DNA of 64,000 nt from Candidatus Levyibacteriota bacterium (GCA_027334565.1 DAHWUP010000001.1:158726-222725); one strand, 5' to 3'. Positions 4,953 to 39,350 are shown, counted from the first letter of the stretch. Translations and numbers: made by a program. The notes: a model not told the origin generated them from the letters alone.

Positions 4953-6047
4953 CTATTCTTTCGAGTCGTGGCTTTCAACTCCGACCTCAACCTGCGCCGG
5001 AGAATTCTTACTTTTGGTCATTATCTCTTCGACAATTCTTTTGGCAATTTCGGGTTTTTCTTTTAAATATAGAATTGCTGCCTGCTTTCCTTGCCCAAGC
5101 ATTGTTTCACCGTACCTGAAGAACGCCCCGGATTTTTGCACAATTCCCATTTCAACTCCGACATCCATAATTCCGCCTTCCCTTGAAATTCCGGTATCCG
5201 CCATCACGTCGAATTCGGCAATTCGGAAGGGTGCGGAAACTTTATTCTTGACGATCTTGGCCCTGTGCCTTGAGCCGACCACTCTGTCGCCTTCTTTAAG
5301 GCTTTCTATTTTGCGGATATCGATCCTGACCGACGCATAGAACTTTAGAGCCAAACCGCCGGTAGTGGTTTCGGGATTCCCGAACATCACGCCTATTTTC
5401 TGTCTTAGCTGGTTGGTAAAAATTACCACGGTTTTGGACTTTGATATGACGGCGGTTAGTTTTCTTAAAGCCTGCGACATTAACCTTGCCTGAAGACCGA
5501 TAATCGCATCGCCCATTTCGCCTTCGATCTCGGCGCGTGGCACCAATGCGGCTACGGAATCAATGACCAAAACGTCAACACCGCCCGAACGGATCAGCGA
5601 CTCGGCGATTTCCAAAGCCTGTTCGCCGGTATCGGGCTGCGAAATCAACAACTCGTCCAACTTTACTCCGATCCTTTCTGCCCATAACGGGTCGAGCGCA
5701 TGTTCGGCGTCGATAAACGCGGCTATGCCTCCGTGCTTTTGTGTCTGTGCGATAATGGATAGACAAACCGTAGTTTTTCCCGAGGCTTCGGGTCCGTAGA
5801 TTTCGATTACCCTTCCTCTTGGCACTCCGCCTACACCAAGTGCTAAATCCAAAGGAAGGCAACCCGTTGAGATCACCGACACGTCCAGTTTTTGTCCGAT
5901 ATCGCCAAAACGCATTATACTGCCACGGCCATACTGTTTTTCGATCTGTTCCATCGCCAGCTTTACAGCTTCCATTTTTTGGGAGTTCTCTTCGTGGTTC
6001 ACCGGAGCAGATTTTTCCGTTCTTGTCGAAGCAGCGCGCCTAGCCAT
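4953..6047 (-). CDS. recA: Recombinase RecA
   Basis: GPEASGKTT Walker [10 protein letters not shown], and L1/L2 loop motifs; 364 aa. Confidence 0.97.
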
Positions 6048-9072: not shown

Positions 9073-9596
9073 GATTTCGGGAAGATCGCCGAAAACGGAG
9101 GACTTTCCTGATCCCTTTTTGACAAAAAAGGTTTAGCATCGGTTTGCCAGTTTATATTTAGATCCTTATCGTTCCATCTGACGTCTTTTTCCCTGCCCGG
9201 CGACCATTCTTCGTCGGTGATATACACGTAATCGGCCTCCTCGCTTAAAACCAGATATGAATTTCCCAGTCCGGCCGGAACAAATAGGGCCATCCTGTTG
9301 TCATCTCCCAGCATGAATGACTCGTACTTTCCATAATTTGCAGACTCCGTTCTACAATCCACAATTACAACCTGGACCTTACCTTTAACCACATAAATTA
9401 TCTTGTTCCAGGGAGCAACATGGATCCCGCGCAGTGTATTTTTGGTAGAATGCGCATGATTCACCTGTTTTGGGATGAAACTTTTGCCGGTTTCTTTTCC
9501 CAGCGCCCCAAATCTCAATACCTCTTTAAAAAATCCTCTTTCATCCGCATGGGCAGGAGACTCGAGCCTAACGATACCCTCGATCTTTGTTTCCAT
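9069..9596 (-). CDS. rfbC: dTDP-4-dehydrorhamnose 3,5-epimerase
   Basis: RmlC cupin motifs: ERGFFKE, LRGIHV, and YVYITDEEW; 175 aa. Confidence 0.85.
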   Translation of the reverse strand: METKIEGIVRLESPAHADERGFFKEVLRFGALGKETGKSFIPKQVNHAHSTKNTLRGIHVAPWNKIIYVVKGKVQVVIVDCRTESANYGKYESFMLGDDNRMALFVPAGLGNSYLVLSEEADYVYITDEEWSPGREKDVRWNDKDLNINWQTDAKPFLSKRDQESPPFSAIFPKS

Positions 9597-9682
9597 GAAA
9601 TGATTGTAGCATTTTTCTTAAAGATTTCCACTCGGGAAATCTTCAAGTATTATTGCTATAATAAGCATCGTCTCGAATTTTT

Positions 9683-10747
9683 ATGTATACATTGCAAGAA
9701 TTTAAAACTGTTTTTGACCCCATCCTGAAGGAATTCCTGGACAAAAGAATAAATGAATTTTTGAGAAATACAACCGATCCTTTTGTCAGGGACTTTGTAT
9801 TGTATTCAAAGACACTGTCTTTAGCCGGTGGAAAAAGGATCAGGCCTTATATTGCTTACATTATGTATACGGCAAGTGGAGGGAAAAATACCGAGGCGGC
9901 ATTAAGATTATTTGTCTGTTTTGAAATATTTCATATGTTTGCCCTGATGCATGACGATGTGATGGACAAGCAGGACAAAAGACACGGGATTGCCACGGTT
10001 CATGCCTATGTTTTGGAAAGATTGAAAGAAAATGACAGGACCGGCGATTTGGAAAATGTCGCAAAAGCACAGGGAATTCTGGCGGGAAGTCTGTTCTTCT
10101 CATGGGCAATGGAATTGTTCCTGGATGATAAAGAATTTCCCGGTAAAAACCTAAAAATCGCCCATGATTATTTTTATAAAATGGTTGACGAGGTCTGCTT
10201 GGGTCAAATATTTGATATAGACACCACCTCAAGGAAAGTAACCCCCGAGGAACTGGTAACACAAAAAACCATACTTAAAACGTCTCGCTATACATTCGTA
10301 AGACCGGCACAAATCGGCGCGCACTTAGCTGATCCCAACAACAAGCTTGACGATTACTTGGAAAATTTAGGAACCAAGCTCGGTATTGCGTTTCAGCTGC
10401 AGGATGACCTGCTCGATATAATCGGTGATACAAAGAAGCTTGAGAAAAATATCTTAAGGGACGTCGCCGACAGGCAAAGCACGTTTTTTACCAATTTTGT
10501 ATTACATAAGGGCAGCAAGATGCAAAGGGAAAAATTTTTGCATTATTTCGGCAATGAATTAAACTCCGGTGAACAAGAAGAAGTGATAAATATTTTTACC
10601 GAATCCGGTGCGATAGACGCAGGTAAAAAATTAATTTTACAAAACCTTGAAGAAGCCAAAAGACTAATCAATATGGCCGATTTGGGCAACGATTATAAAA
10701 AAACGTGTTTGGATTTAATTCAAATTATGCAGGATCGTCAAAATTAG
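9683..10747 (+). CDS. Polyprenyl (isoprenyl diphosphate) synthase
   Basis: First aspartate-rich motif LMHDDVMD and second motif QLQDDLLDIIGD. Confidence 0.85.
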   Translation: MYTLQEFKTVFDPILKEFLDKRINEFLRNTTDPFVRDFVLYSKTLSLAGGKRIRPYIAYIMYTASGGKNTEAALRLFVCFEIFHMFALMHDDVMDKQDKRHGIATVHAYVLERLKENDRTGDLENVAKAQGILAGSLFFSWAMELFLDDKEFPGKNLKIAHDYFYKMVDEVCLGQIFDIDTTSRKVTPEELVTQKTILKTSRYTFVRPAQIGAHLADPNNKLDDYLENLGTKLGIAFQLQDDLLDIIGDTKKLEKNILRDVADRQSTFFTNFVLHKGSKMQREKFLHYFGNELNSGEQEEVINIFTESGAIDAGKKLILQNLEEAKRLINMADLGNDYKKTCLDLIQIMQDRQN

Positions 10748-27378: not shown

Positions 27379-28146
27379 CTAGTCCTTTAAATAAGTCGCT
27401 TTTAACATTTCTAATGAATCTTTCATGAATATAATGTTTTTATTCTTCAAAACCTCATAAGTGTTTAATAAATTTGAAGCACGAATGCTGACACCGCTGA
27501 TGTTTCTGGCCGATTTAACGACGTTTTCAAAATCTTTAGTGGCTTTGGGTGTGACCAGCAACAATTGCGGGTTTTTCCCTTCAAGCGCCAAGCCATTTAG
27601 GGCCTGCGACATGATTTTTGTCTTCGGCTCGAGCTTTTCGTATCCTTTTACAATTTTGATTTCTCCCGCTTTAAGCTTAGCGGTCAAAGCGCTGAAAAGA
27701 GCCGCTTTTCGCATTTTCTGATTCAGTTTAAGGGAATAGTCCCTCGGTTTAGGTCCGAATGCGATACCGCCGCCGACAAAAATCGGAGCCGATTTCGCAC
27801 CGTGTCTGGCCCGTCCGGTTCCTTTTTGTCTGTAAATTTTTCGCGTCGAAATTTTCACTTCTCCTCTTGATTTGGTTTTTACCGTACCCCTTCTCTGGTT
27901 TGATAAATATATTCTTACCGCTTGCGACATCAAAGGGTTGTTAACCTTTGCGTCAAAAATTTCCTTCGGCAGGGTCACCGTTTCGGTCGAATGTCCTCTT
28001 ATGTCGTATACTTTTTGACGAAGTCCGGTTTCTACCAAGGGCGTTTTTGTTACGGAACTTGCCACGGATCTCGCGGGCGTTGATGCCGCCTTTTTAGCGG
28101 ACGGTTTTACTGTTTTACCAACCGGTGATTTTTTAGTTACTGGCAT
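27379..28146 (-). CDS. rplD: 50S ribosomal protein L4 with an N-terminal lysine/alanine-rich extension of about 40 aa
   Basis: L4 core (GTGRARHG...) preceded by an extension rich in K, A, S and T. Confidence 0.9.
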   Translation of the reverse strand: MPVTKKSPVGKTVKPSAKKAASTPARSVASSVTKTPLVETGLRQKVYDIRGHSTETVTLPKEIFDAKVNNPLMSQAVRIYLSNQRRGTVKTKSRGEVKISTRKIYRQKGTGRARHGAKSAPIFVGGGIAFGPKPRDYSLKLNQKMRKAALFSALTAKLKAGEIKIVKGYEKLEPKTKIMSQALNGLALEGKNPQLLLVTPKATKDFENVVKSARNISGVSIRASNLLNTYEVLKNKNIIFMKDSLEMLKATYLKD

Positions 28147-29114
28147 TATTCAACAACCTCCTTATTTACCGTTGTTGCTTCCGAACCATCTGGTTTCGTC
28201 GAAGCTGCCGGTTCGCCTTGCGCTACGTCCTTATTTTCCGCCTGGATATCGGATTGAACAGGTTCCGCATTTTTGGTTTCGGTATCTGATTCCTGATCCG
28301 GCTGGGCAGTTAAAGTCTGAACCGATTCCGGCTCTTTAACCGTTTCTGTTTCATCGTTTACAACCGTTTCATCGGCCGGAATGTCTTTTTGCTCCGGTTC
28401 CGCTTCGGGCTCGCTATATAAAGGTACAAATTTTTTATTTTCTCCTACTTTTTTAACCAGCAGAAGCGAGTTGATTCTACCCGGCACCAAACCCCTAATT
28501 AGCAATACTCCGTCGTTGGTGATATCGATGACCTCCAAATTTTTAACGGTGACCCTATCACTTCCCATTCTTCCTGCCATTTTCTTGCCTCTATACACTC
28601 TTCCAGGTGTAGTGGTTTGACCGATAGAACCGGGAGCTCTTTCGCGATCGGATTGTCCGTGGGTTCTGGGACCGCCCTTAAAATGATATCTTTTCACCCC
28701 ACCGGCCCAACCCTTTCCTTTGGAAACACCGGTAACGTCGATTATGTCACCCGCTGTAAAAATTTCACCAACGGCCACTTCCGTACCCAAAACGGCGCCG
28801 GCAATATCTTCAACCCTGACTTCCTTAAAGTATTTGGGTGAGGGAATGGTCGTTCTTGTTACTGCGGGGTCTGTTTCGGAAGTTTGTTTCGGGGAATTAA
28901 GTGCCTTTTGGACGTGACCGAAAATCGCTTTATTCGTCCTTTTCTTGGCATCCATCCCAAGTTGAATCGAATTGTATCCTTCTTTATCCTGAGTTTTTAT
29001 TTGAGTGATAACATTTCCGGCAACCGTCACCCCGGTCAACGGAACCCTCGTTCCGTCTTGCAGGAATCCCTGTTTTTGATAAGTTTTTTTACCGATAAGT
29101 GCGTTTAATTGCAT
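28146..29114 (-). CDS. rplC: 50S ribosomal protein L3 with an acidic C-terminal extension of about 100 aa (start at MQLNALIGKK)
   Basis: L3 core (GKGWAGGVKR...G.IG). Then the C-terminal region is rich in Glu, Thr, Asp and Gln (EPEAEPEQKDIPADETVVNDETETVKEPE...). RBS GGAAGGA lies before the ATG at 29114. Confidence 0.88.
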   Translation of the reverse strand: MQLNALIGKKTYQKQGFLQDGTRVPLTGVTVAGNVITQIKTQDKEGYNSIQLGMDAKKRTNKAIFGHVQKALNSPKQTSETDPAVTRTTIPSPKYFKEVRVEDIAGAVLGTEVAVGEIFTAGDIIDVTGVSKGKGWAGGVKRYHFKGGPRTHGQSDRERAPGSIGQTTTPGRVYRGKKMAGRMGSDRVTVKNLEVIDITNDGVLLIRGLVPGRINSLLLVKKVGENKKFVPLYSEPEAEPEQKDIPADETVVNDETETVKEPESVQTLTAQPDQESDTETKNAEPVQSDIQAENKDVAQGEPAASTKPDGSEATTVNKEVVE

Positions 29115-29123
29115 GTTTTCCTT

Positions 29124-29160
29124 CCAGACAAACAAAAAGCGACCACACAGAGTCGCTCTT
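29124..29160 (-). terminator. Terminator/attenuator-like hairpin with a U-tract in the rplC leader (minus-strand transcript)
   Basis: On the minus strand the sequence reads AGCGAC-UCUGUGUG-GUCGCU followed by UUUUUGUUUGU. This lies about 10-45 nt upstream of the rplC ATG and downstream of a 7-codon uORF (ATG GAG GTG ATC GAA GCT ACA TAG). Confidence 0.4.
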
Positions 29161-29233
29161 ATCACAAAATTTGTAAAAAGCCTCCTATGTAGCTTCGATC
29201 ACCTCCATTTGCCTGATCATTTTGTTAAAAGTT

Positions 29234-29262
29234 ATTATATAGAAATTCGTGCCTAAATGCAA
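29234..29262 (-). promoter_or_regulatory. Sigma-70-like promoter (TTGCAT-N17-TATAAT) reading toward rplC
   Basis: On the minus strand, TTGCAT spans 29262-29257, the spacer is 17 nt, and TATAAT spans 29239-29234. It lies just past the stop of the inserted ORF and about 115 nt upstream of rplC. Confidence 0.45.
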
Positions 29263-29274
29263 GGGGATGCGGTT

Positions 29275-29820
29275 TTATTCCTGCACGGGTTGCAAGCGTC
29301 CAAGAACGTTGCCGGTAACTTTGGCCGCCTCTTGGCCGGTCCTGGTCTCTTTTAGAAGCGTATGCAATTTGGGAGAGTAAACTCCAACGCCTTCGTCCTT
29401 CATCTGCTGGGTCTGTAAGAGTTCTTTCATGCAGGAGAAGGTTGTAACGTTGTCATCCGAAAAATCGATATCTATCGACAGCCAGCCCAGGAATTTTAAA
29501 CCCTCCCTGGCTATCAAACGGTCTGCCGGTCCGCTCTCCTCTCCTTCAGCCTTCGGAGCAGGTTCGTATTCCATCACACGCTGATAGGCCGGCCTTAATT
29601 CTTCAAGCTTTGGATGTTCACGAAAATTAGAACCTAAACTATAGCGCGCGCCTTTGATTTCCAGCCAACCGCTTTGCCCCGAGTCGATTATAGTTTTCGC
29701 TTCGGGAATCGCCTCTAGTGCATCGAATACCCTTTTTCTAAGGCCTGATACTTGTTCCGGACCCAAAGTACCTTCGGTTTCGTTTTGATGGTCTTCTGTT
29801 GTTTCCGCGGCCGCATCCAT
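29275..29820 (-). CDS. Hypothetical acidic protein of 181 aa, inserted between rpsJ and rplC; no recognisable domain
   Basis: A clean ORF in operon orientation. Local GC is visibly higher than the neighbours (several 60-nt stretches above 55% against roughly 40-45% around it). It has an acidic N-terminus (MDAAAETTEDHQNETEG). No motif recognised. Confidence 0.55.
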   Translation of the reverse strand: MDAAAETTEDHQNETEGTLGPEQVSGLRKRVFDALEAIPEAKTIIDSGQSGWLEIKGARYSLGSNFREHPKLEELRPAYQRVMEYEPAPKAEGEESGPADRLIAREGLKFLGWLSIDIDFSDDNVTTFSCMKELLQTQQMKDEGVGVYSPKLHTLLKETRTGQEAAKVTGNVLGRLQPVQE

Positions 29821-29867
29821 GCATAAATGGTCTCATAATAAGCAAGGCAAGTCAAGCTAAAAGAGGG

Positions 29868-30182
29868 TTACATCTTGATTTCGACGTTAACTCCCGCGGG
29901 GAGTTCAAGGTGGGTTAAGGAATCGATGGTTTTTTCCGTCGGGGAGACGATATCGATCAATCGTTTATGGATTTTTATCTGGAAATGATCCCTGGCATTT
30001 TTATCGATGAACGTGGATTTATTTACCGCATATACGCTGCGCTTTGAAGGAAGAGGTATCGGCCCGACCACTTTGGCACCGGTTCGAATTGCCGTATCAA
30101 GAATTTGTTGACACGTTGAGTCGATCACTCTAGCATCGTAACTTTTTAATTTTACTCTGATTCTTCCTTTTGGCATATGCAA
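29868..30182 (-). CDS. rpsJ: 30S ribosomal protein S10
   Basis: RIRVKLKSYD...LD (the S10 signature); 104 aa. Confidence 0.95.
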   Translation of the reverse strand: MHMPKGRIRVKLKSYDARVIDSTCQQILDTAIRTGAKVVGPIPLPSKRSVYAVNKSTFIDKNARDHFQIKIHKRLIDIVSPTEKTIDSLTHLELPAGVNVEIKM

Positions 30183-30231
30183 TAAATATTAAAGAGCTAA
30201 TGAACATCTTTGGGCAGAAGATAATGAAGAA

Positions 30232-31413
30232 TTAGGCGATTATTTTGTTGATTACGCCTGCTCCGACCGTTTTTCCGCCCTCTCTCACCGCAAATCTAAG
30301 TCCTTCTTCCAAGGCAACGGGCGTGATAAGTTTGACGGTCATCTTAGTGTTATCTCCGGGCATTACCATCTCGACGCCCTGAGGCAAGGTGGATTCACCA
30401 GTAACATCGGTCGTACCGATAAAGAATTGCGGTCTGTATCCCGAGAAGAAAGGTGTGTGCCTACCCCCCTCCTCTTTGGTCAGAATATAAATTTCCGCCT
30501 CAAATTCTTTGTGTGGTGTGATTGAGCCCGGTTTTGCAATGACTTGACCTCTTTCCACATCGGTCTTCTCAACACCCCTAAGTAAGATTCCTACATTGTC
30601 GCCGGCCTGACCTTCTTCAAGGCTCTTTCTGAACATTTCTACGCCGGTAACCACCGACTGTTTGGTCGGTTTGATCCCGACAATTTCGACCGGGTCGTTA
30701 ACCTTGATTTTTCCTCTTGAAATTCTTCCCGTTACGACCGTCCCACGTCCTTTGATCGAAAAAACATCCTCGATCGGCATCAAGAAAGGTTTATCCAGGT
30801 CCCTGACCGGGGTCGGAATATAGGAATCGACCGCGTCCATCAGAGCTTCAATTTGTTTCTCGGCTTCAGGGTCGCCTTCCAGAGCCTTAAGAGCAGAACC
30901 CCTGATGATCGGCACTTCGTTTCCGGGATACTGATATTTTGTAAGAAGTTCTCTTACTTCCATTTCAACCAGGTCCAAAAGCTCCGGATCGGAAACCATA
31001 TCGCATTTGTTAAGGAAAACTACAATTGATGGTACCTGAACTTGGTGGGCAAGGAGTATGTGTTCTCTGGTTTGGGGCATGGGGCCGTCGGGAGCTGAAA
31101 CTACGAGGATAGCGCCGTCCATCTGGGCGGCTCCCGTAATCATGTTCTTAATGTAATCCGCATGGCCCGGTGCATCGATATGAGCATAATGTCTTTTGGC
31201 GGTTTCGTATTCGATGTGGGAAATATTAATAGTAACGCCCCTTGCTTTTTCTTCGGGGGCGTTATCGATGTCCTCGTATTTTTTGGCTTGTGCCATTCCC
31301 TTCTTGGCCAAAACGGTAGCAATAGCCGCCGTTAACGTGGTTTTACCATGGTCTACATGACCGATGGTACCGATATTTACATGTGGTTTATTTCGTACGT
31401 ATTTGTCTGCCAT
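30232..31413 (-). CDS. tuf: Elongation factor Tu
   Basis: [14 protein letters not shown]-like DAPGHADY, and NKCD motifs; 393 aa. Confidence 0.97.
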
Positions 31414-31489
31414 GTTTTATCAAAAAAAATAACCCCTCAAGGTTGAATTTAATATACAATACTTTTTAAAAACCGTCAAGAGGTAAAAT

Positions 31490-31831
31490 TTACTTTTCCG
31501 ATTTTAATTTTTCTTTTTCTCTTAAAGAAAGGATATTTATAACTTCGGATACCAAATATGCTAAAAAGGCATACACTAAAAGCGCAAAAAGAGTGGATAA
31601 TTCCAGAACGAATCCACTCTTTAATACTTGATTCGGAAAAATTCCTACAAATGGTGCCAATACCGGTTGGGTTGTATCGTAAACCCAAGCCACGAACGGG
31701 GCTTGCGTGTTTGCGCCGAATAGCTTTAAAACTATCCTTAGTAATAGTAAAAATTCTACGACTGAAAATACTACATCCGCAAGAAATGTCAACGGAAGAA
31801 ATTTATTCATGATAATTTGTGCGTTGTACAT
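31490..31831 (-). CDS. YggT family small membrane protein (the true start may be the internal Met at 31810)
   Basis: Two TM helices with a conserved Pro and aromatic pattern (FVAWVYDTTQPVLAPF). Confidence 0.5.
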   Translation of the reverse strand: MYNAQIIMNKFLPLTFLADVVFSVVEFLLLLRIVLKLFGANTQAPFVAWVYDTTQPVLAPFVGIFPNQVLKSGFVLELSTLFALLVYAFLAYLVSEVINILSLREKEKLKSEK

Positions 31832-31891
31832 CTACAACGGTCATAAACCCGGAAGTGTTACATATTTCGGTAGTTCTTAAAGCGGATTTTG

Positions 31892-32422
31892 TTATTTGAG
31901 TTGAAGATAATCCGAAATTCCGACCTTGATTGTCTTAAAAGCCAGATCCATATTCAAAATCTCCGTGGGTGGAAAATATTGATACTCCGAAACATCGTCC
32001 GAAACTTTAATTTCTCCCCGAGTGATTTTTGCAAAGACCGCTACGCACAAAATCGGAAAATCAATGTGCTGATATTCATAAGAGTCCGTATATACTCCGA
32101 CCAACCTATTTATCATTATTTCGACTCCCAACTCTTCTTTTATCTCCCGTATGACCGAGTGCTCAAAATTTTCTCCACCGTTTAAAAATCCACCCGGCCA
32201 ATCCCATTTATTCTTTTGAGGATCAAATTTTCTTTTTACCAATAATATTTCGCCTTTATCGTTTTCAATAACTACGGCATTACAGGGAACCGCGTTTTGA
32301 TAAAATTTAAAACCGCATTTTTGACAAATTAAAAGATTATCGGTTCGTTTTTTTAAAACTCCCGCACATTTAGGGCAAAATTTATAAACAGCCGCAGGAC
32401 TCATGTTAGTATGGTTTTTCAT
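31892..32422 (-). CDS. Nudix hydrolase with an N-terminal C4 zinc ribbon
   Basis: CPKC...CQKC followed by the Nudix box GGFLNGGENFEHSVIREIKEELGVE. Confidence 0.85.
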   Translation of the reverse strand: MKNHTNMSPAAVYKFCPKCAGVLKKRTDNLLICQKCGFKFYQNAVPCNAVVIENDKGEILLVKRKFDPQKNKWDWPGGFLNGGENFEHSVIREIKEELGVEIMINRLVGVYTDSYEYQHIDFPILCVAVFAKITRGEIKVSDDVSEYQYFPPTEILNMDLAFKTIKVGISDYLQLK

Positions 32423-32621
32423 CGGAGGTTTTCATTCCGCTTTTTATCGCATACAACAATTCTTCATCCGTCATCGTCTGCTCTTCATCGCCATGCATTT
32501 GACTGTAATGCTGTTTGACAATATCTTCCAATTTATAATTCGCGTCCCAGCTGGCCTGCGAGTCGTCTTCGTATTCGTAAAGAACTTGTCCGCACTTCGG
32601 ACAGGCAAAAGAATAATACAA
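32406..32621 (-). CDS. Small hypothetical protein with a CPKC motif and an acidic tail
   Basis: 71 aa; MYYSFACPKCGQVLYEYED...; overlaps the Nudix gene start by 17 nt. Confidence 0.4.
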   Translation of the reverse strand: MYYSFACPKCGQVLYEYEDDSQASWDANYKLEDIVKQHYSQMHGDEEQTMTDEELLYAIKSGMKTSDEKPY

Positions 32622-32657
32622 TTTACCTCACCTCCTTAAAAACTATACATATATTGT

Positions 32658-33314
32658 TTAAGCGTTTCTTTTTTCTATCCCCGAAATCTCTTGGATAAAA
32701 AAATCCACTCCGTCGCTTCTAAGCACGACGAATCCCGTATTCGCAATCGCCCCGGAGCTTAACTCTCTGAACGTCCCGACGCCCAAATGCACCAAAAGCG
32801 CACGCATAACGAATCCGTGACTTACTACCAAAACCGTTTTGTTCGGATAGGCTATTGCGATTTCCCGAAGTGCCGTAATAAATCTCCCCAAGGCCTCCTC
32901 GGCACTTTCCATATCCGGAAAAAGTTTCCATTTCCAGATTTTTTCCACAGGCATATTTTCGGGGTAATTAAAAATATTACCGATATCCAATTCCTCCCTA
33001 AGCTCTTTCTCGGTTTTTCCACCCAAATTTCCTTTACGGCGTTCTTCCAGAGCTTCTTTGGCAACAACAGCCATTTTTCGCTCCTTGGCCAAAATTTCCG
33101 CGGTATGTTTTGCACGGTTCAAATGCGAAGCAAAAATAGCGTCAAAATTGATATGGTTGAATTTAGAAGCCAGCGACTCAGCTTGTTTACGTCCGGTATC
33201 GGTAAGGTCCGAACCGAGTTTTGTTCGTTGCACCTCATGGAGCCAATTACCGAAATTTATATTCCCCTCAGACTCTCCATGTCTAACCAGATAAATCGTG
33301 CAAAGTTTATCCAT
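32658..33314 (-). CDS. Histidine phosphatase family protein (phosphoglycerate mutase-like)
   Basis: LVRHGESEGN RHG catalytic motif and a C-terminal SHG. Confidence 0.85.
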   Translation of the reverse strand: MDKLCTIYLVRHGESEGNINFGNWLHEVQRTKLGSDLTDTGRKQAESLASKFNHINFDAIFASHLNRAKHTAEILAKERKMAVVAKEALEERRKGNLGGKTEKELREELDIGNIFNYPENMPVEKIWKWKLFPDMESAEEALGRFITALREIAIAYPNKTVLVVSHGFVMRALLVHLGVGTFRELSSGAIANTGFVVLRSDGVDFFIQEISGIEKRNA

Positions 33315-33368
33315 TTAAACCATTATAACATTTGACATTTAGACAATTATCCTATAATATTGTAACCC

Positions 33369-33854
33369 GTGAGAAATTACGAAACACAACCGTTATCGTC
33401 GGACGAAGAAGCTTCGGTTTTAGCCGATTTGAATCAGGAAATAGTGAACGCAAAACTTCGAACCGATTGGGATCTGGGAAGCGATTCGGGTTCTTTATAT
33501 TTTTCAAGAGACACGCTTATCTTAACGCCCTTTGAGTTATCCAAACTTTTTAAGCTTCCCGAAAGTTTTTTTGTTTTACCCGAAGAAGCAAAAATACCGA
33601 GTATAACGGAAAATCCTATGCTCAGAAACAGGTTTAAACAATTGGTCGGTATCATGTGTTTTCTACAAAGAGTGATTCCCGACGTTTTTAGCAGGGACGA
33701 CTTCTCAAGAACTCGTCAGGGGATCTTTGAACAGGAATCGCCTTTACAACTTCTAAGCACCAGAGAGCCGGTTCAAGCATACACGATAATTAAAGAGCCG
33801 GCAAAATTTTGGGGATTCAGGGATACACAAATTCCGCGAAGATCTGTTTTCTAG
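33369..33854 (+). CDS. Hypothetical protein
   Basis: A 161-aa ORF with no recognised motif, co-directional with the downstream hypothetical gene. Confidence 0.4.
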   Translation: MRNYETQPLSSDEEASVLADLNQEIVNAKLRTDWDLGSDSGSLYFSRDTLILTPFELSKLFKLPESFFVLPEEAKIPSITENPMLRNRFKQLVGIMCFLQRVIPDVFSRDDFSRTRQGIFEQESPLQLLSTREPVQAYTIIKEPAKFWGFRDTQIPRRSVF

Positions 33855-33916
33855 GTCTTGTGAACGTAGGCTTTTCCCCATTGACAAAAAAAATTTTCTG
33901 CCGGACAATGAATTAA

Positions 33917-34513
33917 ATGTCAAGTAAGGAGTGCTTCAAGCTCCAATATTGCCCCACTGAACCGGAAGAAGGCAGTTTTATCATCTCCGGTCATGATAAC
34001 CCCCGCTATGTAAACATTCCTGCGGAGCTGATTCACGCAACCGGTGAATTGGGTAACAAAAGAGCTAAATTTATCGAAGACAGAGTTGGGAAAATTCTAC
34101 TTCATCGGACAAATGTCGTTGCCGACGTGACCCGAAACGGTTTTAATAGCGAAGAGGACGGTTTGGGACACGATCTCACTCTGACATTACGCGATAACTG
34201 CCCCGTTAGAACCGTTCATGTACAAGTTAAAGCCAGTAGACGAGAGGTCGTGAACTATAAACGGTGGATAAAGAAAAAATATTTCCCGGATGCCGAAGAC
34301 AACATTGAAGACCTCATTAAGGGTTGGCTAACGGAAAACAATCTCATTTTAATCAATGGCATTGAAACCAAATCGGCGGATGAAATCCTGACCGACAGCT
34401 TCTATCCTCAATTGCAAAGGGTCTTCAACCGGGGTGATATACCAAGATCACCGGGCCAGTTAATTCTATTTAATGACATTCCGGAAGCTAAATTGCTTTC
34501 TCCCGCAGCTTAG
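33917..34513 (+). CDS. Hypothetical protein, paralog of 35953..36420; possible Hjc/Mrr-like PD-(D/E)XK fold with QxK in place of ExK
   Basis: The shared block GHDLTLTLRDNCPVRTVHVQVKAS...NYKRWIKKK...NLILING...DEIL..F.PQL aligns with GRDIIILFKDELERDPVFIQVKSS...NKKTKKWLKRR...RIMLIIGNG..EEI..F.EQL in the other ORF. Confidence 0.5.
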   Translation: MSSKECFKLQYCPTEPEEGSFIISGHDNPRYVNIPAELIHATGELGNKRAKFIEDRVGKILLHRTNVVADVTRNGFNSEEDGLGHDLTLTLRDNCPVRTVHVQVKASRREVVNYKRWIKKKYFPDAEDNIEDLIKGWLTENNLILINGIETKSADEILTDSFYPQLQRVFNRGDIPRSPGQLILFNDIPEAKLLSPAA

Positions 34514-34943
34514 GCAAAAGTTGATTGATCCGATTTTTTATTTCTTCGAAAACTCCCTCGGTGAACTGTACTTTTTTAATTTCTTCCGATGAGGAATTAA
34601 AGGTGCTGTCTGTATCCTTAATATCCCATACTTCAAAATTCTCAGGTTTATATCCGAATTTTTCGGTGCAATAAGTATATACATCATTATCCATGAATAC
34701 GGTAAAATCCCCTTCTTCCAAAAGCGGCCTGGTGGTTTGGTCCCAAACCGGTTTTTCATACGGAATTAGGTGGTGATGTTGGATGATCCTTTGCGCATAC
34801 CAGCTCACCGGACCGCATTGATTCAACGAGGCTGCAACACCGCTTGATACCGCTTTGATGTTGGGGAGTTCTTTTGAGTTAAGATAAGCTTCCGCCAGAC
34901 GGCTCCTGAAGGTATTTCCCTTACAAATGAAGTGGATCGTCAT
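34488..34943 (-). CDS. Low-molecular-weight phosphotyrosine phosphatase / ArsC-like (LMWPc fold)
   Basis: CKGNTFRS P-loop (C-x5-R-S) at the N-terminus; 151 aa. Confidence 0.75.
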   Translation of the reverse strand: MTIHFICKGNTFRSRLAEAYLNSKELPNIKAVSSGVAASLNQCGPVSWYAQRIIQHHHLIPYEKPVWDQTTRPLLEEGDFTVFMDNDVYTYCTEKFGYKPENFEVWDIKDTDSTFNSSSEEIKKVQFTEGVFEEIKNRINQLLPKLREKAI

Positions 34944-34987
34944 ATTTTAATTATGAATTAGTTTGAAAAAGTTTTCAACCAAAATTT

Positions 34988-35281
34988 TCATTCTTGAGTG
35001 ATCCTGATCAGTTCCGTTCTTAAAGATCCGGGCAAGATCCCTTCGACATATTCAGACTTCCCCGGCATCAAAGATTTTGTTTCGCTTGTAGTTGGCCATG
35101 GGGGCGCAAACCGGGATTGCCTTACCATAATAAGCGACGGGCCATTATCTCCCTGGAAAACGACATGCTTTGGGCTTGTTTTTGCGATACCGCTTGGAAT
35201 ACCGATCGGCATCGGACCCATATCGACCCGGGTCCATTGATTCAAATTTCTTAATACTTCAATTCTAACCGGCATAAGCAT
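34988..35281 (-). CDS. Hypothetical protein (strand assignment uncertain; an 80-aa ORF overlaps on the + strand)
   Basis: A 97-aa ORF with no recognised motif. Confidence 0.25.
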   Translation of the reverse strand: MLMPVRIEVLRNLNQWTRVDMGPMPIGIPSGIAKTSPKHVVFQGDNGPSLIMVRQSRFAPPWPTTSETKSLMPGKSEYVEGILPGSLRTELIRITQE

Positions 35282-35337
35282 GGGGATTATACAACTTTTA
35301 TCATTACTTTTCCTTAGGGTACCGGCGGAAGCTTATC

Positions 35338-35874
35338 TTAACGTAATTTTTCTATTTCTAAAAGTATTTCTTTAAGAATCGGAATATCCACCAACATGTC
35401 TGCCGACTGAAAGAATTCATCCAGCTTAATTCTTACTTTTTTCTCGTATTCCAACGCCTGCAAAGCTCGTTCAAGTTTATCGACCTGCTTTACAAACCTT
35501 GCTTCCTTGCTTTTATTTTCGGAATACTCTTTAAACAAAGAATCATACACTTTACCTCCGATCAAACCGGTGATCTCTTCGACAGCTTTCGATTCGTTAA
35601 GCAATTTCTCCTCATATCCGGGCAAATAACCCTTTGCGTCAAATTTGATCAAATCTCCGACCTTTGCTTCACCGATGTCGTGCACCAAGGCCATTTTTAC
35701 ACATTTATTTGCATCGATGCCCGCTTTTTCGGCCAGGACCAAACTCATGACGGCGACCCTAAAGGAATGGTCCGCAACGCTTTCCGGGTCCGGTATATGA
35801 TGTTTTATCCAACCGGTTCTTTTAATCGATTTTAATTTACCGACCTCCTCTAAAAATTGAATAATGCCCATCAC
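35338..35874 (-). CDS. HD domain phosphohydrolase (YfbR-like 5'-deoxynucleotidase family)
   Basis: Metal ligands H...HD...D (VADHSFRV, LVHDIGE) in a 178-aa all-helical frame. Confidence 0.8.
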   Translation of the reverse strand: MMGIIQFLEEVGKLKSIKRTGWIKHHIPDPESVADHSFRVAVMSLVLAEKAGIDANKCVKMALVHDIGEAKVGDLIKFDAKGYLPGYEEKLLNESKAVEEITGLIGGKVYDSLFKEYSENKSKEARFVKQVDKLERALQALEYEKKVRIKLDEFFQSADMLVDIPILKEILLEIEKLR

Positions 35875-35952
35875 CTTTTAATTATAGCAAACAAATAATG
35901 TCTTATATTCCATCTTGACAGAACTATCAACTTATTTATAAATTAATATTAG

Positions 35953-36420
35953 ATGACGATAGAGGCCTCCGCCTTTAGCCCTGCCCTATCCAGAGCACTC
36001 GGTTTACCGGACGGGTCGCTTGCTCCCCCTGACCTTACCTCGGATGAAAAAGGAAGTTATTCGGAAATCAAAGTTGCGACAGCTTTAATGGATCATCCGG
36101 AAATTTCTAGGGTGACCATGACCGAACATTATAGTCCCGACGACATGCGCGGCCGCGACATAATAATTTTATTTAAGGATGAACTCGAAAGAGATCCTGT
36201 TTTCATTCAGGTAAAATCAAGTCATAATGGAGCGGATATCTACAATAAAAAAACCAAAAAATGGCTTAAGAGACGCGGTTTGAATATGACGACCGAAGAA
36301 TGGATGGCAATGAATAGAATTATGCTTATCATCGGAAACGGAAATACCCCCGAAGAAATCAGGGAAAGTTTCGATGAACAGTTGCATGCGATTACGTCAT
36401 TAGGTAAAACCAAACATTAA
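35953..36420 (+). CDS. Hypothetical protein, paralog of 33917..34513 (Hjc-like KGSYSE...RDIIILF...IQVKSS pattern)
   Basis: See the alignment under the paralog. KGSYSE/DIII/IQVKSS resemble Hjc KGSxFE/DIIA/IEVKS. Confidence 0.5.
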   Translation: MTIEASAFSPALSRALGLPDGSLAPPDLTSDEKGSYSEIKVATALMDHPEISRVTMTEHYSPDDMRGRDIIILFKDELERDPVFIQVKSSHNGADIYNKKTKKWLKRRGLNMTTEEWMAMNRIMLIIGNGNTPEEIRESFDEQLHAITSLGKTKH

Positions 36421-36458
36421 TCAGTCGCTACCGAAAAATTATGGTCCGGCCTTTTTGA

Positions 36459-37193
36459 TCAACTTGACCGCATTATTTTTTTTAATCTTGTCGATATTCG
36501 AACAAACTCGTCCGCCGAATCTTTTGGTTTCCAGCCGAACGGATTGGAAACATCATGCACTCTTCCCGGATTATCCGACACAGCATATATAACAGCAAAA
36601 TTTTCCGGAACTTTTTTTGCATTTAGTACCTTCTTTATTAAAGAAACGCAGTCGCCGTGCGATAACCAGGCTCCCCTTTCTTCCCTGGGACGATCATTAA
36701 GCGAAGGCGAAACGTTCCCGGGATTCACCCCGCCGAACCTGATCGCCACCACTTCCATATCGCTTTTGGCAAAATACCGCCCTAAATATTCCATAAAAAT
36801 CTTATCTGCGCCGTAAGGACTATCCGGAACGGGGGTATGGTCGGTCGAAAGAAACGGCTTTGTACCATAAAATGAATCCGCATGTATGGAGCTGGCAACG
36901 ATCGCTCTTTTTACTTTTGCTTCCCTCGCCGCTTTATATAAATTGACGGCCATTTGCGCGTTTTCGGGGTCGATATTTTCATTTTTTAGATTTTCGGTTT
37001 GGGAATTCCACGCAAGATGGATTACGGCAAAGTTATCCCTAAGCTTCGATATAAGTGTCTGATAATCAAGCACATCGATTCCGAGTTTTATATCGATCGG
37101 GGTAATTTCATAATCATCGTAAAGACCCTTTTTAAGGACTGTTCCGATCACTCCTTCCGAACCTGTAATGGCTATCTTTACCTTCATTGCCAA
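36459..37193 (-). CDS. NAD-dependent epimerase/dehydratase family (SDR) protein
   Basis: N-terminal ITGSEGVIG Rossmann motif and a YxxxK-like region (YGADK). Confidence 0.7.
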   Translation of the reverse strand: MAMKVKIAITGSEGVIGTVLKKGLYDDYEITPIDIKLGIDVLDYQTLISKLRDNFAVIHLAWNSQTENLKNENIDPENAQMAVNLYKAAREAKVKRAIVASSIHADSFYGTKPFLSTDHTPVPDSPYGADKIFMEYLGRYFAKSDMEVVAIRFGGVNPGNVSPSLNDRPREERGAWLSHGDCVSLIKKVLNAKKVPENFAVIYAVSDNPGRVHDVSNPFGWKPKDSADEFVRISTRLKKIMRSS

Positions 37194-37250: not shown

Positions 37251-39350
37251 CTATTCAACTCTTCCGGTAAAAGTGGATTTTGCCAACATCTGTTGGACGA
37301 TACTTTGCGGAACTTCTTCGTAATGACTTGGTTCCATATAATATGACGCGCGTCCCTGAGACATCGAACGAATGGTGGTCGCATAGCCTGAGAGCTCAGC
37401 CAAGGGCACCATTGACAAAATTATGGTCGCCTTTCCCCGTTCTTCGGTCCCCATGATTTGAGCGCGTTTGGATGAAAGATCACCGATGATATCCCCCATA
37501 AATTCGCTCGGGGTGGTAACTTCAACCTTCATGATCGGTTCCAAAAGCTGTAGGTTTGCTTTTTTGCTCGCCGCCTGCAAGGCCTGTGACGCGGCGATTT
37601 TAAACGCAACGTCCGACGAATCAACTTCATGATAGGAACCGTCGTAAACGGTCACTTTCATATCGACCATAGGATACCCGAGGAGTATACCGTTTTCCAT
37701 TGTTTCCTTAACTCCCTTTTGAACCGAGATCACAAATTCGGCAGGAATTGCTCCTCCCTTGATAGCGTCGACGAATTCAAATCCTTCACCCCGCGGCTTT
37801 GGTTCAACTCTTAACCAACAATGACCGTACTGGCCGCGGCCTCCGGACTGGCGGATATATTTTCCTTCCCCCTCACCCATTACCTTAACGGTTTCTTTGT
37901 ATGCAACTTGCGGTGCGCCGACATTCGCCAAAACGCCGAATTCGCGTTTCATCCTGTCAACCATTACCTCAAGCTGTAGCTCTCCCATTCCCGAGATGAT
38001 GGTTTGATTGGTTTCGTGATTAACTTTGATGCTGAATGTAGGGTCTTCTTCGGAAAGACGTTTGAGCGCTAAGCCCAATTTTTCCTGATCGGCTTTGGTT
38101 TTAGGTTCGATCGCCAACGAAATGACCGGTTCCGGGAAAGAAATTTTTTCCAATATTATCGGCGCTTTTTCTTCGCATAGGGTATCTCCGGTTCCTGTAT
38201 CCTTAAGACCGACCAGCGCCACGATTTCACCCGCATAAGCTTCTTTTATCTCTTCCCTGTGGTTTGCATGCATCAATAAAATTCGGCCGACCCTTTCGGT
38301 TTGATTTTTGGTTGAATTGTAAATGTATGACCCCGCCAACACTTTTCCCGAATAGACCCGGTAGTAAGTTAGTTTACCGACGTGTGGATCTATTTGTATT
38401 TTGAAAGCCAATCCCGCAAACGGTTCGTCCGCCTCGGGTTTTCTAACCTCGGCCGCGCCTGTTTTAGGATTTTCTCCATGAACTTCACCAACGTCCAAAG
38501 GAGAAGGAAGATAGTCAACTACCGCATCCAATAAAGGTTGAACTCCTTTATTCCTTAGAGAGCTTCCGCAAAAAATCGGTACCAACTTATAAGCGATGAC
38601 CGCCTTTCTTAAGGCCGTTTTCAGCTCTTCGTCGCTGATGGTATCTCCGTTGAGATATTTCTCCGTCAACGTATCGTCGGTCTCGGCAATTTTTTCAACC
38701 AGTTTATGTCGATATTCCTCCGCCTGAGCTTTCATGTCCGCCGGAATTTCAACCACGTCGAATTTTGCACCCAGCTCATCGGAGCCCCAAACATAAGCCT
38801 TCATTTCCATCAACTGAACTATCCCTTTAAACGTACTTTCTGCTCCGATCGGAAGGGCCATGATCAAAGGATTTGCTCCAAGCCGGTCTTCGATGGTTTT
38901 AACCGTATGAAGGAAATCTGCGCCTAATTTATCCATCTTATTTACAAAACAAAGTCTTGGCACTTTATATTTATCGGCCTGTCGCCAGACGGTCTCCGAT
39001 TGCGACTGTACACCTTCTTCGGCGTCCAAAACAGTGATGCCGCCGTCCAAAACTCTTAAGGACCTTTCCACTTCTGCGGTAAAATCGACATGGCCCGGAG
39101 TATCGATGATGTTAATGCGGAAGCCTTTCCAGAACGCGGTGGTTGCGGCCGAAACAATCGTGATCCCTCTTTCTCTTTCCTGTTCCATCCAGTCCATCTG
39201 CGTATTTCCTTCATCGATATCGCCGATTTTATGGGTTTTTCCCGTATAAAAAAGTACCCGCTCGGTGGTGGTGGTTTTGCCCGCGTCGATATGGGCAATG
39301 ATGCCGATATTTCTTACCTTATCCAATGTTTTTAATCTATCCTCAGCCAT
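37251..39350 (-). CDS. fusA: Elongation factor G
   Basis: [17 protein letters not shown], and NKMD motifs; 699 aa. Confidence 0.97.

Follow-up and report, generated by a model that had tools for sequence, protein, structure and literature searches.

The leader of the S10 operon in E. coli exerts its control through L4-mediated transcription attenuation together with translational control. In archaea, a tuf-rps10 unit, in which S10 accompanies EF-Tu/EF-1alpha, stands apart from the rpl3-rpl4-rpl23-rpl2 operon. A candidate L4 r-leader has been described upstream of rplC in the Archaeoglobi (Eckert & Weinberg 2020, PMC7247131). Two other kinds of system are comparable to the locus analyzed here, namely the attenuators of trp, his and thr operons, where a promoter-proximal short ORF, a hairpin and an intrinsic terminator precede the first structural gene, and plasticity hotspots, where narrowly distributed, domainless ORFans lie between conserved core genes and relatives carry unrelated genes at the same junction.

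Here, we describe the junction between rpsJ and rplC in a 64,000-nucleotide stretch of DNA from Candidatus Levyibacteriota bacterium (hereafter, the window), which holds a 181-aa ORF and a putative leader ahead of rplC. As in the E. coli S10 operon, this leader would precede the first gene of an L3-L4-L23-L2... series and place a terminator-like hairpin with a U-run near the start codon; unlike the E. coli leader, which lies ahead of rpsJ and has no mini-ORF, it lies ahead of rplC, contains a conserved mini-ORF and does not match any r-leader in Rfam. The arrangement resembles the archaeal order in that S10 is found with EF-Tu and L3 would open an operon of its own behind a structured leader; the differences from the Archaeoglobi are the bacterial (CPR) lineage, the sigma-70-type promoter, the intrinsic-terminator-type hairpin and, again, the lack of an Rfam match. 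The succession of short ORF, hairpin and terminator is that of the trp, his and thr attenuators, and the length and frame of the mini-ORF tend to be kept while its peptide sequence drifts, much as in leader-peptide attenuators; in contrast to the former, the mini-ORF is free of regulatory codon runs and the operon encodes ribosomal proteins rather than biosynthetic enzymes. The 181-aa ORF itself fits the description of a hotspot ORFan, but its slot (the interval between rpsJ and rplC) sits at what is normally among the most conserved bacterial operon junctions and, unlike the usual hotspots, carries no integrase, tRNA or repeat signature. No description of the rpsJ-rplC arrangement in CPR bacteria was found in the literature searched.

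The minus strand of the window carries, in this order, tuf, rpsJ, the 181-aa ORF, rplC, rplD, rplW, rplB, rpsS and rplV. The tuf gene (EF-Tu; 30232..31413 in the ORF list) is 91% identical to its counterpart in a second Levybacteria genome (L081), which bears the GTP_EFTU domains. The S10 gene, rpsJ (Pfam Ribosomal_S10, E = 9e-32), occupies 29868..30176 from its likely start, the ATG at 30176 (homologs begin MPKGRIRV), and extends to a TTG at 30182 in the ORF list. The L3 gene, rplC (28146..29114; Pfam Ribosomal_L3), starts with MQLNALIGKK, and the N-termini of its homologs line up at the same ATG. Between the latter two genes, in operon orientation, the 181-aa ORF spans 29275..29820 and starts with ATG.

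The earlier note on this DNA had described the ORF as domainless and undescribed, and both statements are borne out. At a threshold of E ≤ 1, Pfam, NCBIfam, PHROGs and PADLOC yielded no family; a profile search against PDB sequences gave no significant hit (best E = 0.068). The lack of a domain, the orphan status of the family and a Shine-Dalgarno sequence that is at best weak would all be compatible with a chance open frame, encoding nothing, in intergenic DNA or a degraded leader. Against such a barely credible reading, a 180-aa homolog, P0002, can be aligned with the ORF over its entire length, a single 1-residue gap being needed; pS between the two sequences (0.88, saturated) is well above pN (0.46), which is the pattern of coding sequence; the annotated frame has the top codon score among the three frames; and AF2, given the homolog, predicts a coherent alpha/beta domain. 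The chance-frame reading is thus effectively refuted, and the ORF is a real protein-coding gene, more than a product of chance, and not a degraded leader.

The N-terminus of the protein is acidic, as previously noted (7 D/E and 0 K/R among the first 25 residues), and the whole-protein pI is 4.84; acidity is not, however, a character of the family, P0002 being basic (pI 9.4). The suggestion that the gene is compositionally atypical survives only in part. Its GC content of 0.498 is above both the mean of the window genes (0.427 ± 0.038 over 70 proxy genes; z = 1.85, rank 3/70) and the values for rplC (0.462) and rpsJ (0.429), but it is near that of tuf (0.481), and both GC3 (z = 0.89) and synonymous codon usage (z = -0.82) are typical of the genes in the window. 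The extra GC is found at codon position 1 (0.59 vs 0.47) because the protein is rich in Glu, Gly and Ala.

Searches for relatives of the ORF covered about 15 billion proteins overall. P0002 was the sole true relative, recovered at E = 1.2e-22 by exhaustive HMMER search of 1.84 billion cluster representatives, with 37% identity over ~166 aa (residues 15-179); four other HMMER matches were rejected as spurious, being repeat or low-complexity proteins of 552-1280 aa aligned over 30-45 residues. A word-seeded search returned only the self-match, a singleton cluster. The two-sequence profile built from the ORF and P0002 recovered no further members from a database of 5.8 billion clusters and no relatives from JGI metagenome contigs or IMG/VR viral contigs, and the corresponding HMM found no distant relative among 50 ORFs of at least 80 aa occupying the slot in related genomes (best E = 0.74). 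Neither tblastn (E ≤ 10) nor blastn of the whole slot exposed a pseudogene remnant in these relatives, the leader region alone being alignable. The ORF is accordingly a member of an orphan family with two known members, both in Levybacteria genomes.

P0002 resides on a 619-kb contig of L081, also between rpsJ and rplC and just upstream of the rplC control region, with two small ORFs of 93 and 48 aa separating it from rpsJ. The TTGCAT promoter-like element follows the stop codon after 7 nt in L081 and after 12 nt in the window. The two genomes clearly represent different species, with identities of 91% for tuf, 89% for S10, 77% for L2, 62% for L4, 60% for L3 and 56% for L23, as compared with 37% for the 181-aa ORF, which diverges faster than each neighbor compared. 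The possibility that P0002 is a contaminant copy from the same organism was considered and is unlikely because the neighboring genes differ by 9-44%.

To survey the slot in relatives, 80 loci were retrieved via S10, one genome per species, from Levybacteria, other Microgenomates (CPR) and a few outgroups. None of these S10-retrieved loci contains a detectable relative of the 181-aa ORF; overall, the family is present in 2 of 74 sampled loci, the window and L081. The rpsJ-rplC spacer could be counted in the 73 loci with both genes placeable: it is under 100 nt in 4 loci (outgroups), 100-260 nt in 33 (promoter and leader only), 261-600 nt in 6, and over 600 nt, up to 3.4 kb, in 30 loci with cargo genes; across the related loci, it ranges from about 120 nt to 3.4 kb. 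With regard to synteny, on which the earlier note had made the insertion depend, a homolog does occupy the same slot, but in L081 only; the gene is not clade-wide, and the slot is variable across the 73 loci.

The cargo genes of the relatives are unrelated, encompassing Asp_Glu_race, Pep_deformylase, CAP, GH26+CBM96, PMT_2 (glycosyltransferase), His_Phos_1, NUDIX, Glyoxalase, DUF5680, Fic, EamA, FtsJ (methyltransferase) and Na_H_Exchanger proteins, along with several ORFans, and some of them lie on the opposite strand (L019, L031, L047, L050 and L062). In a crude NJ marker tree of three proteins (tuf+S10+L3), the window is sister to L002, followed by L001 + L005 and then by L081 with L004. The 181-aa ORF is missing from the sister genome as well as from L001, L004 and L005; the slot contains def in L002, a racemase gene in L001, GH26+def in L005, a CAP gene in L004 and P0002 in L081, amounting to at least 5 different slot contents in the six-genome clade around the window. 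On this tree, the ORF would either be ancestral and have been replaced at least three times, or have moved within the clade.

This distribution bears on the suggestion that the 181-aa protein acts as a ribosome- or translation-associated factor specific to the lineage, co-expressed with ribosomal proteins for functional reasons. A translation-linked role is conceivable given that some of the relatives' cargo is translation-related (deformylase, FtsJ-type methyltransferase), and retention of the slot in two genomes with L3 only 60% identical could reflect selection for position. Such a factor is nevertheless unlikely, the gene being confined to two genomes whose closest relatives have unrelated genes in the slot or none.

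Quite unlikely, too, is the proposal that the ORF is a recent foreign passenger, that is, cargo of a mobile element or phage that landed in a highly expressed operon. Its patchy distribution, its GC above the window mean (z = 1.85) and the turnover of slot content would be expected of such a passenger. Of the features of horizontally acquired cargo, however, the patchy distribution was found, and atypical codon usage and mobility hallmarks were not: GC3 and synonymous codon usage are those of the window; repeats flanking the ORF are chance-level (10-13 nt only); neither the window nor any of 12 relatives has a tRNA or tmRNA close to the slot; no integrase was detected among the slot cargo genes scanned, and no transposase at the slot; and the ORF matches neither phage (PHROGs) nor defence (PADLOC) families and has no relatives on viral contigs. 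The lone homolog, furthermore, occupies the corresponding slot of a related Levybacteria genome, next to a homologous promoter region, even though L3 of the two genomes is only 60% identical, and therefore fits vertical descent or within-clade exchange. There is no evidence of recent foreign acquisition of the 181-aa ORF.

The region between the slot cargo and rplC is, by contrast to the cargo, conserved. Most Microgenomates loci, cargo-bearing or not, have a TTGCAT (or TTGACC)-N17-TATAAT promoter-like pair 125-175 nt upstream of the rplC start codon; the window has TTGCAT-N17-TATAAT at 29234..29262 on the minus strand, starting 12 nt past the stop codon of the 181-aa ORF. A generic promoter scan misses TTGCAT, which matches only 3/6 positions of TTGACA, and the call of this promoter therefore rests on cross-locus conservation. 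From 5' to 3', the unit ahead of rplC consists of the promoter-like pair, a mini-ORF, a small hairpin and a terminator-like GC hairpin with a T-run, the leader being about 115-170 nt long. The spacer that joins the mini-ORF stop to the terminator stem (29157..29184, minus strand) contains the small hairpin, which is variable in sequence and was predicted in 17/17 leaders folded. The terminator-like hairpin and T-run (AAGAGCGACTCTGTGTGGTCGCTTTTTGTTTGT; 29125..29160, minus strand; a scan match) end ~20 nt ahead of the rplC start codon in the window and 10-50 nt before rplC across loci.

Covariation in the terminator-like hairpin is extensive. Compensatory double changes are present in 6/9 stem pairs and 94.6% of cells are paired, compared with 36-61% pairing in slid controls; double-change cells number 35, against 10.7 ± 3.6 in shuffles, none of which reached this value (0/500). 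Within the 64-kb window, the hairpin sequence is unique, 0 occurrences being expected by chance, and Rfam gave no match at E ≤ 1 in 28900..31700. In outgroups with tight rpsJ-rplC spacing (19-86 nt), the promoter/leader unit is absent. Within the clade, the leaders of L002, L001 and L005 resemble that of the window and the leader of L004 resembles that of L081; the two hosts of the ORF family carry different leader subtypes. A conserved structured 5' leader ending in an intrinsic-terminator hairpin, the mark of r-protein leaders, is thus found upstream of rplC, and the promoter and leader together are a candidate new r-protein operon leader or attenuator. Separately, some loci have an extra 50-150 nt that separates the start of rplC from the leader terminator (L002, ~5178-5320; L017, ~5844-5923; L059; L027; L036); the extra segment of L017 is a near-perfect palindrome (gtcatcctgagtgaaacgaagga...tcttcacttcgttcagaatgac) and possibly represents a small MITE/REP-like insertion.

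The conservation of the promoter and leader ahead of rplC changes the interpretation of the 181-aa ORF. It had been seen as an insertion that splits the S10 operon, but the promoter-like pair and structured leader separate rpsJ from rplC in most Microgenomates whether or not cargo is present, and several of the slot genes are on the opposite strand; the operon was therefore already split, and the ORF fills an existing gap. Wherever the promoter can be located, cargo always lies between the rpsJ stop codon and the rplC promoter. We consider it probable that the ORF is a dispensable accessory ('cargo') gene in a permissive gap between two transcription units and not a component of the S10 operon. 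Under this model, rpsJ would close a tuf-rpsJ unit in Levybacteria and other Microgenomates, and rplC-rplD-rplW-rplB... would begin anew from its own TTGCAT-N17-TATAAT promoter and ~115-nt leader. DNA placed between the rpsJ stop and the rplC promoter would harm neither unit, and the gap would be a gene-turnover hotspot because inserts there leave both transcription units undisturbed.

With regard to expression, the boundaries of the units, the use of their promoters and leaderless expression at the slot are what we infer from motif matches and their spacing. Upstream of tuf, TTGACG-N17-TATATT (31451..31479, minus strand), which scores 10/12 in a consensus scan and is a pattern match only, is the likely start of the tuf-rpsJ transcription unit. 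Read-through from this site into the 181-aa ORF is plausible because the scan detected no terminator-like site in the 47-nt spacer between rpsJ and the ORF. Co-expression with rpsJ and tuf, as inferred earlier from position, is to that extent possible; the ORF also has, however, a promoter-like site of its own, TTGACT-N17-GACCAT (29827..29855, minus strand), with the ATG 6 nt past the -10 hexamer in a leaderless-type geometry. The -10 hexamer is weak (3/6), and P0002 in L081 is preceded by TTGACT-N17-GATTAT-N6-ATG, with the same -35 hexamer and the same geometry. The ORF would thus probably be expressed from its own site as a leaderless mRNA, read-through from tuf-rpsJ probably adding to its expression, and its transcripts would end at, or pass through, the rplC leader hairpin.

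A similar organization is found for other cargo. A promoter match of at least 8/12 ends 4-12 nt before the start codon in 13/34 cargo genes of relatives, and autonomous leaderless cassettes seem to be common in the slot. As a further observation, in many cargo genes a TTGxxx-N16-18-TAxxxT match ends only 5-10 nt before the ATG, without a Shine-Dalgarno sequence (slots of L002, L005, L012, L016, L017, L037, L039, L067 and L081), which suggests that these CPR genomes make frequent use of leaderless mRNAs.

In the window, the mini-ORF of the rplC leader would encode MIRQMEVIEAT* (11 codons; 29185..29220, minus strand) and contains a GGAGGTGATC block that is a perfect extended Shine-Dalgarno-like sequence; in the window's subgroup, the GGAGGUGAUC block is a perfect anti-16S sequence. 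The mini-ORF starts 8-17 nt past the -10 hexamer across loci, and its stop codon, which may be TAG, TAA or TGA, lies 28-35 nt from the terminator stem. The peptides of the closest genomes are similar (MIRQQEVIEAT* in L002 and MIIQTEVIEAT* in L001), and a length of exactly 11 codons is kept in 13/17 close leaders and about 20/45 loci overall, across at least 6 unrelated peptide types, including such dissimilar peptides as MSKLLIVSMIT, MTTLRRVSLTT, MLIILCSGTKD and MIFSPQRKIHT. The frame stays intact in L010, where the GGAGG block is displaced by 3 nt, and in L017, which has an in-frame insertion of 36 nt. This pattern is suggestive of attenuation coupled to the translation of a leader peptide or, alternatively, of a leader that binds an r-protein. 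The only hint of an antiterminator pairing like that of the trp, his and thr attenuators comes from a single-sequence MFE fold, in which the GGAGGUGAUC block pairs with the 3' arm of the terminator in that one sequence.

A broader scenario can be put forward tentatively. In Levybacteria and other Microgenomates, control of the main r-protein operon may lie with an undescribed leader comprising a probably leaderless 11-codon mini-ORF close to the promoter, a small hairpin and an intrinsic terminator, which would act as a translation- or r-protein-sensing attenuator in place of the classical S10 leader; the uncoupling of rplC from rpsJ would then have created, within the most conserved bacterial gene cluster, a neutral landing pad that gathers and exchanges accessory genes, the 181-aa orphan among them.

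Proximity to this leader raises the question of whether the 181-aa protein could be its trans-acting regulator, for example, an RNA-binding factor. In both genomes the gene adjoins the rplC promoter within 7-12 nt, as might be expected of such a regulator, but L002, L001, L005 and L004 lack the gene despite nearly identical leaders, no nucleic-acid-binding domain or fold was found in the protein, and the two host genomes carry different leader subtypes; we regard this role as very improbable. Because the closest relatives with nearly identical leaders do without the ORF, a ribosome-associated function and a leader-regulating function are both disfavored.

Addition of P0002 raised the pLDDT of the AF2 model from 43.6 to 62.8 (pTM 0.52), and this low-confidence model consists of a disordered N-terminal tail of ~15-20 residues, two helices within residues 21-47, an antiparallel sheet and a C-terminal helix (162-176). 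No known fold was matched, which is weak evidence at a model pLDDT of only 62.8. The protein is presumably a small, soluble, cytoplasmic, dispensable accessory with a non-ribosomal role.

Taken alone, the 181-aa ORF is of little consequence, being one more two-member CPR orphan family. Of more interest than the ORF are the new promoter and leader, by which rplC would be uncoupled from rpsJ across the clade, and the resulting hotspot: a junction usually treated as an invariant synteny anchor would be, in this CPR lineage, an operon boundary and a turnover hotspot. For genome annotation, this implies that a link to the ribosome should not be assumed for ORFs located inside this cluster. With respect to regulation, the rplC leader bears on the control of ribosome synthesis in reduced genomes and provides a concrete, testable candidate for a new r-protein leader.

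The rpsJ-rplC junction is not the only place where the cluster is interrupted. In the window, fusA (37251..39350) is separated from tuf by a gap of ~5.8 kb (31490..37193) that contains nine unrelated genes on both strands, among them YGGT, NUDIX, His_Phos_1, LMWPc, HD_3 and epimerase genes as well as ORFans, so that more than one junction of the str/S10 supercluster is broken up. Unrelated genes likewise precede tuf in L081. The His_Phos_1 gene of the window (32658..33314, minus strand), located upstream of tuf, shares 43-46% identity with the His-phosphatases that occupy the slot in L014 (4416-5069), L016 (5051-5686) and L029 (4428-5141), the family thus being found at different cluster junctions in different genomes.

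Several minor features of the neighboring r-protein genes were also recorded. The L3 protein of the window is extended at its C-terminus by about 90-100 aa of acidic, low-complexity sequence (EPEAEPEQKDIPADETVV...; 28146..28420, minus strand), and L081 L3 has such an extension too, with a different sequence. The L4 protein has an N-terminal extension of ~40 aa that is rich in Lys, Ala and Ser (28000..28146, minus strand). In L081 (ENA contig; 9587-10326), rplD is called in two pieces of 176 and 54 aa, and in L082 (Logan contig, 99.7% identical to L081; 2222-2953) it is one gene of 243 aa, which probably points to a frameshift or an assembly error in one of the two contigs.
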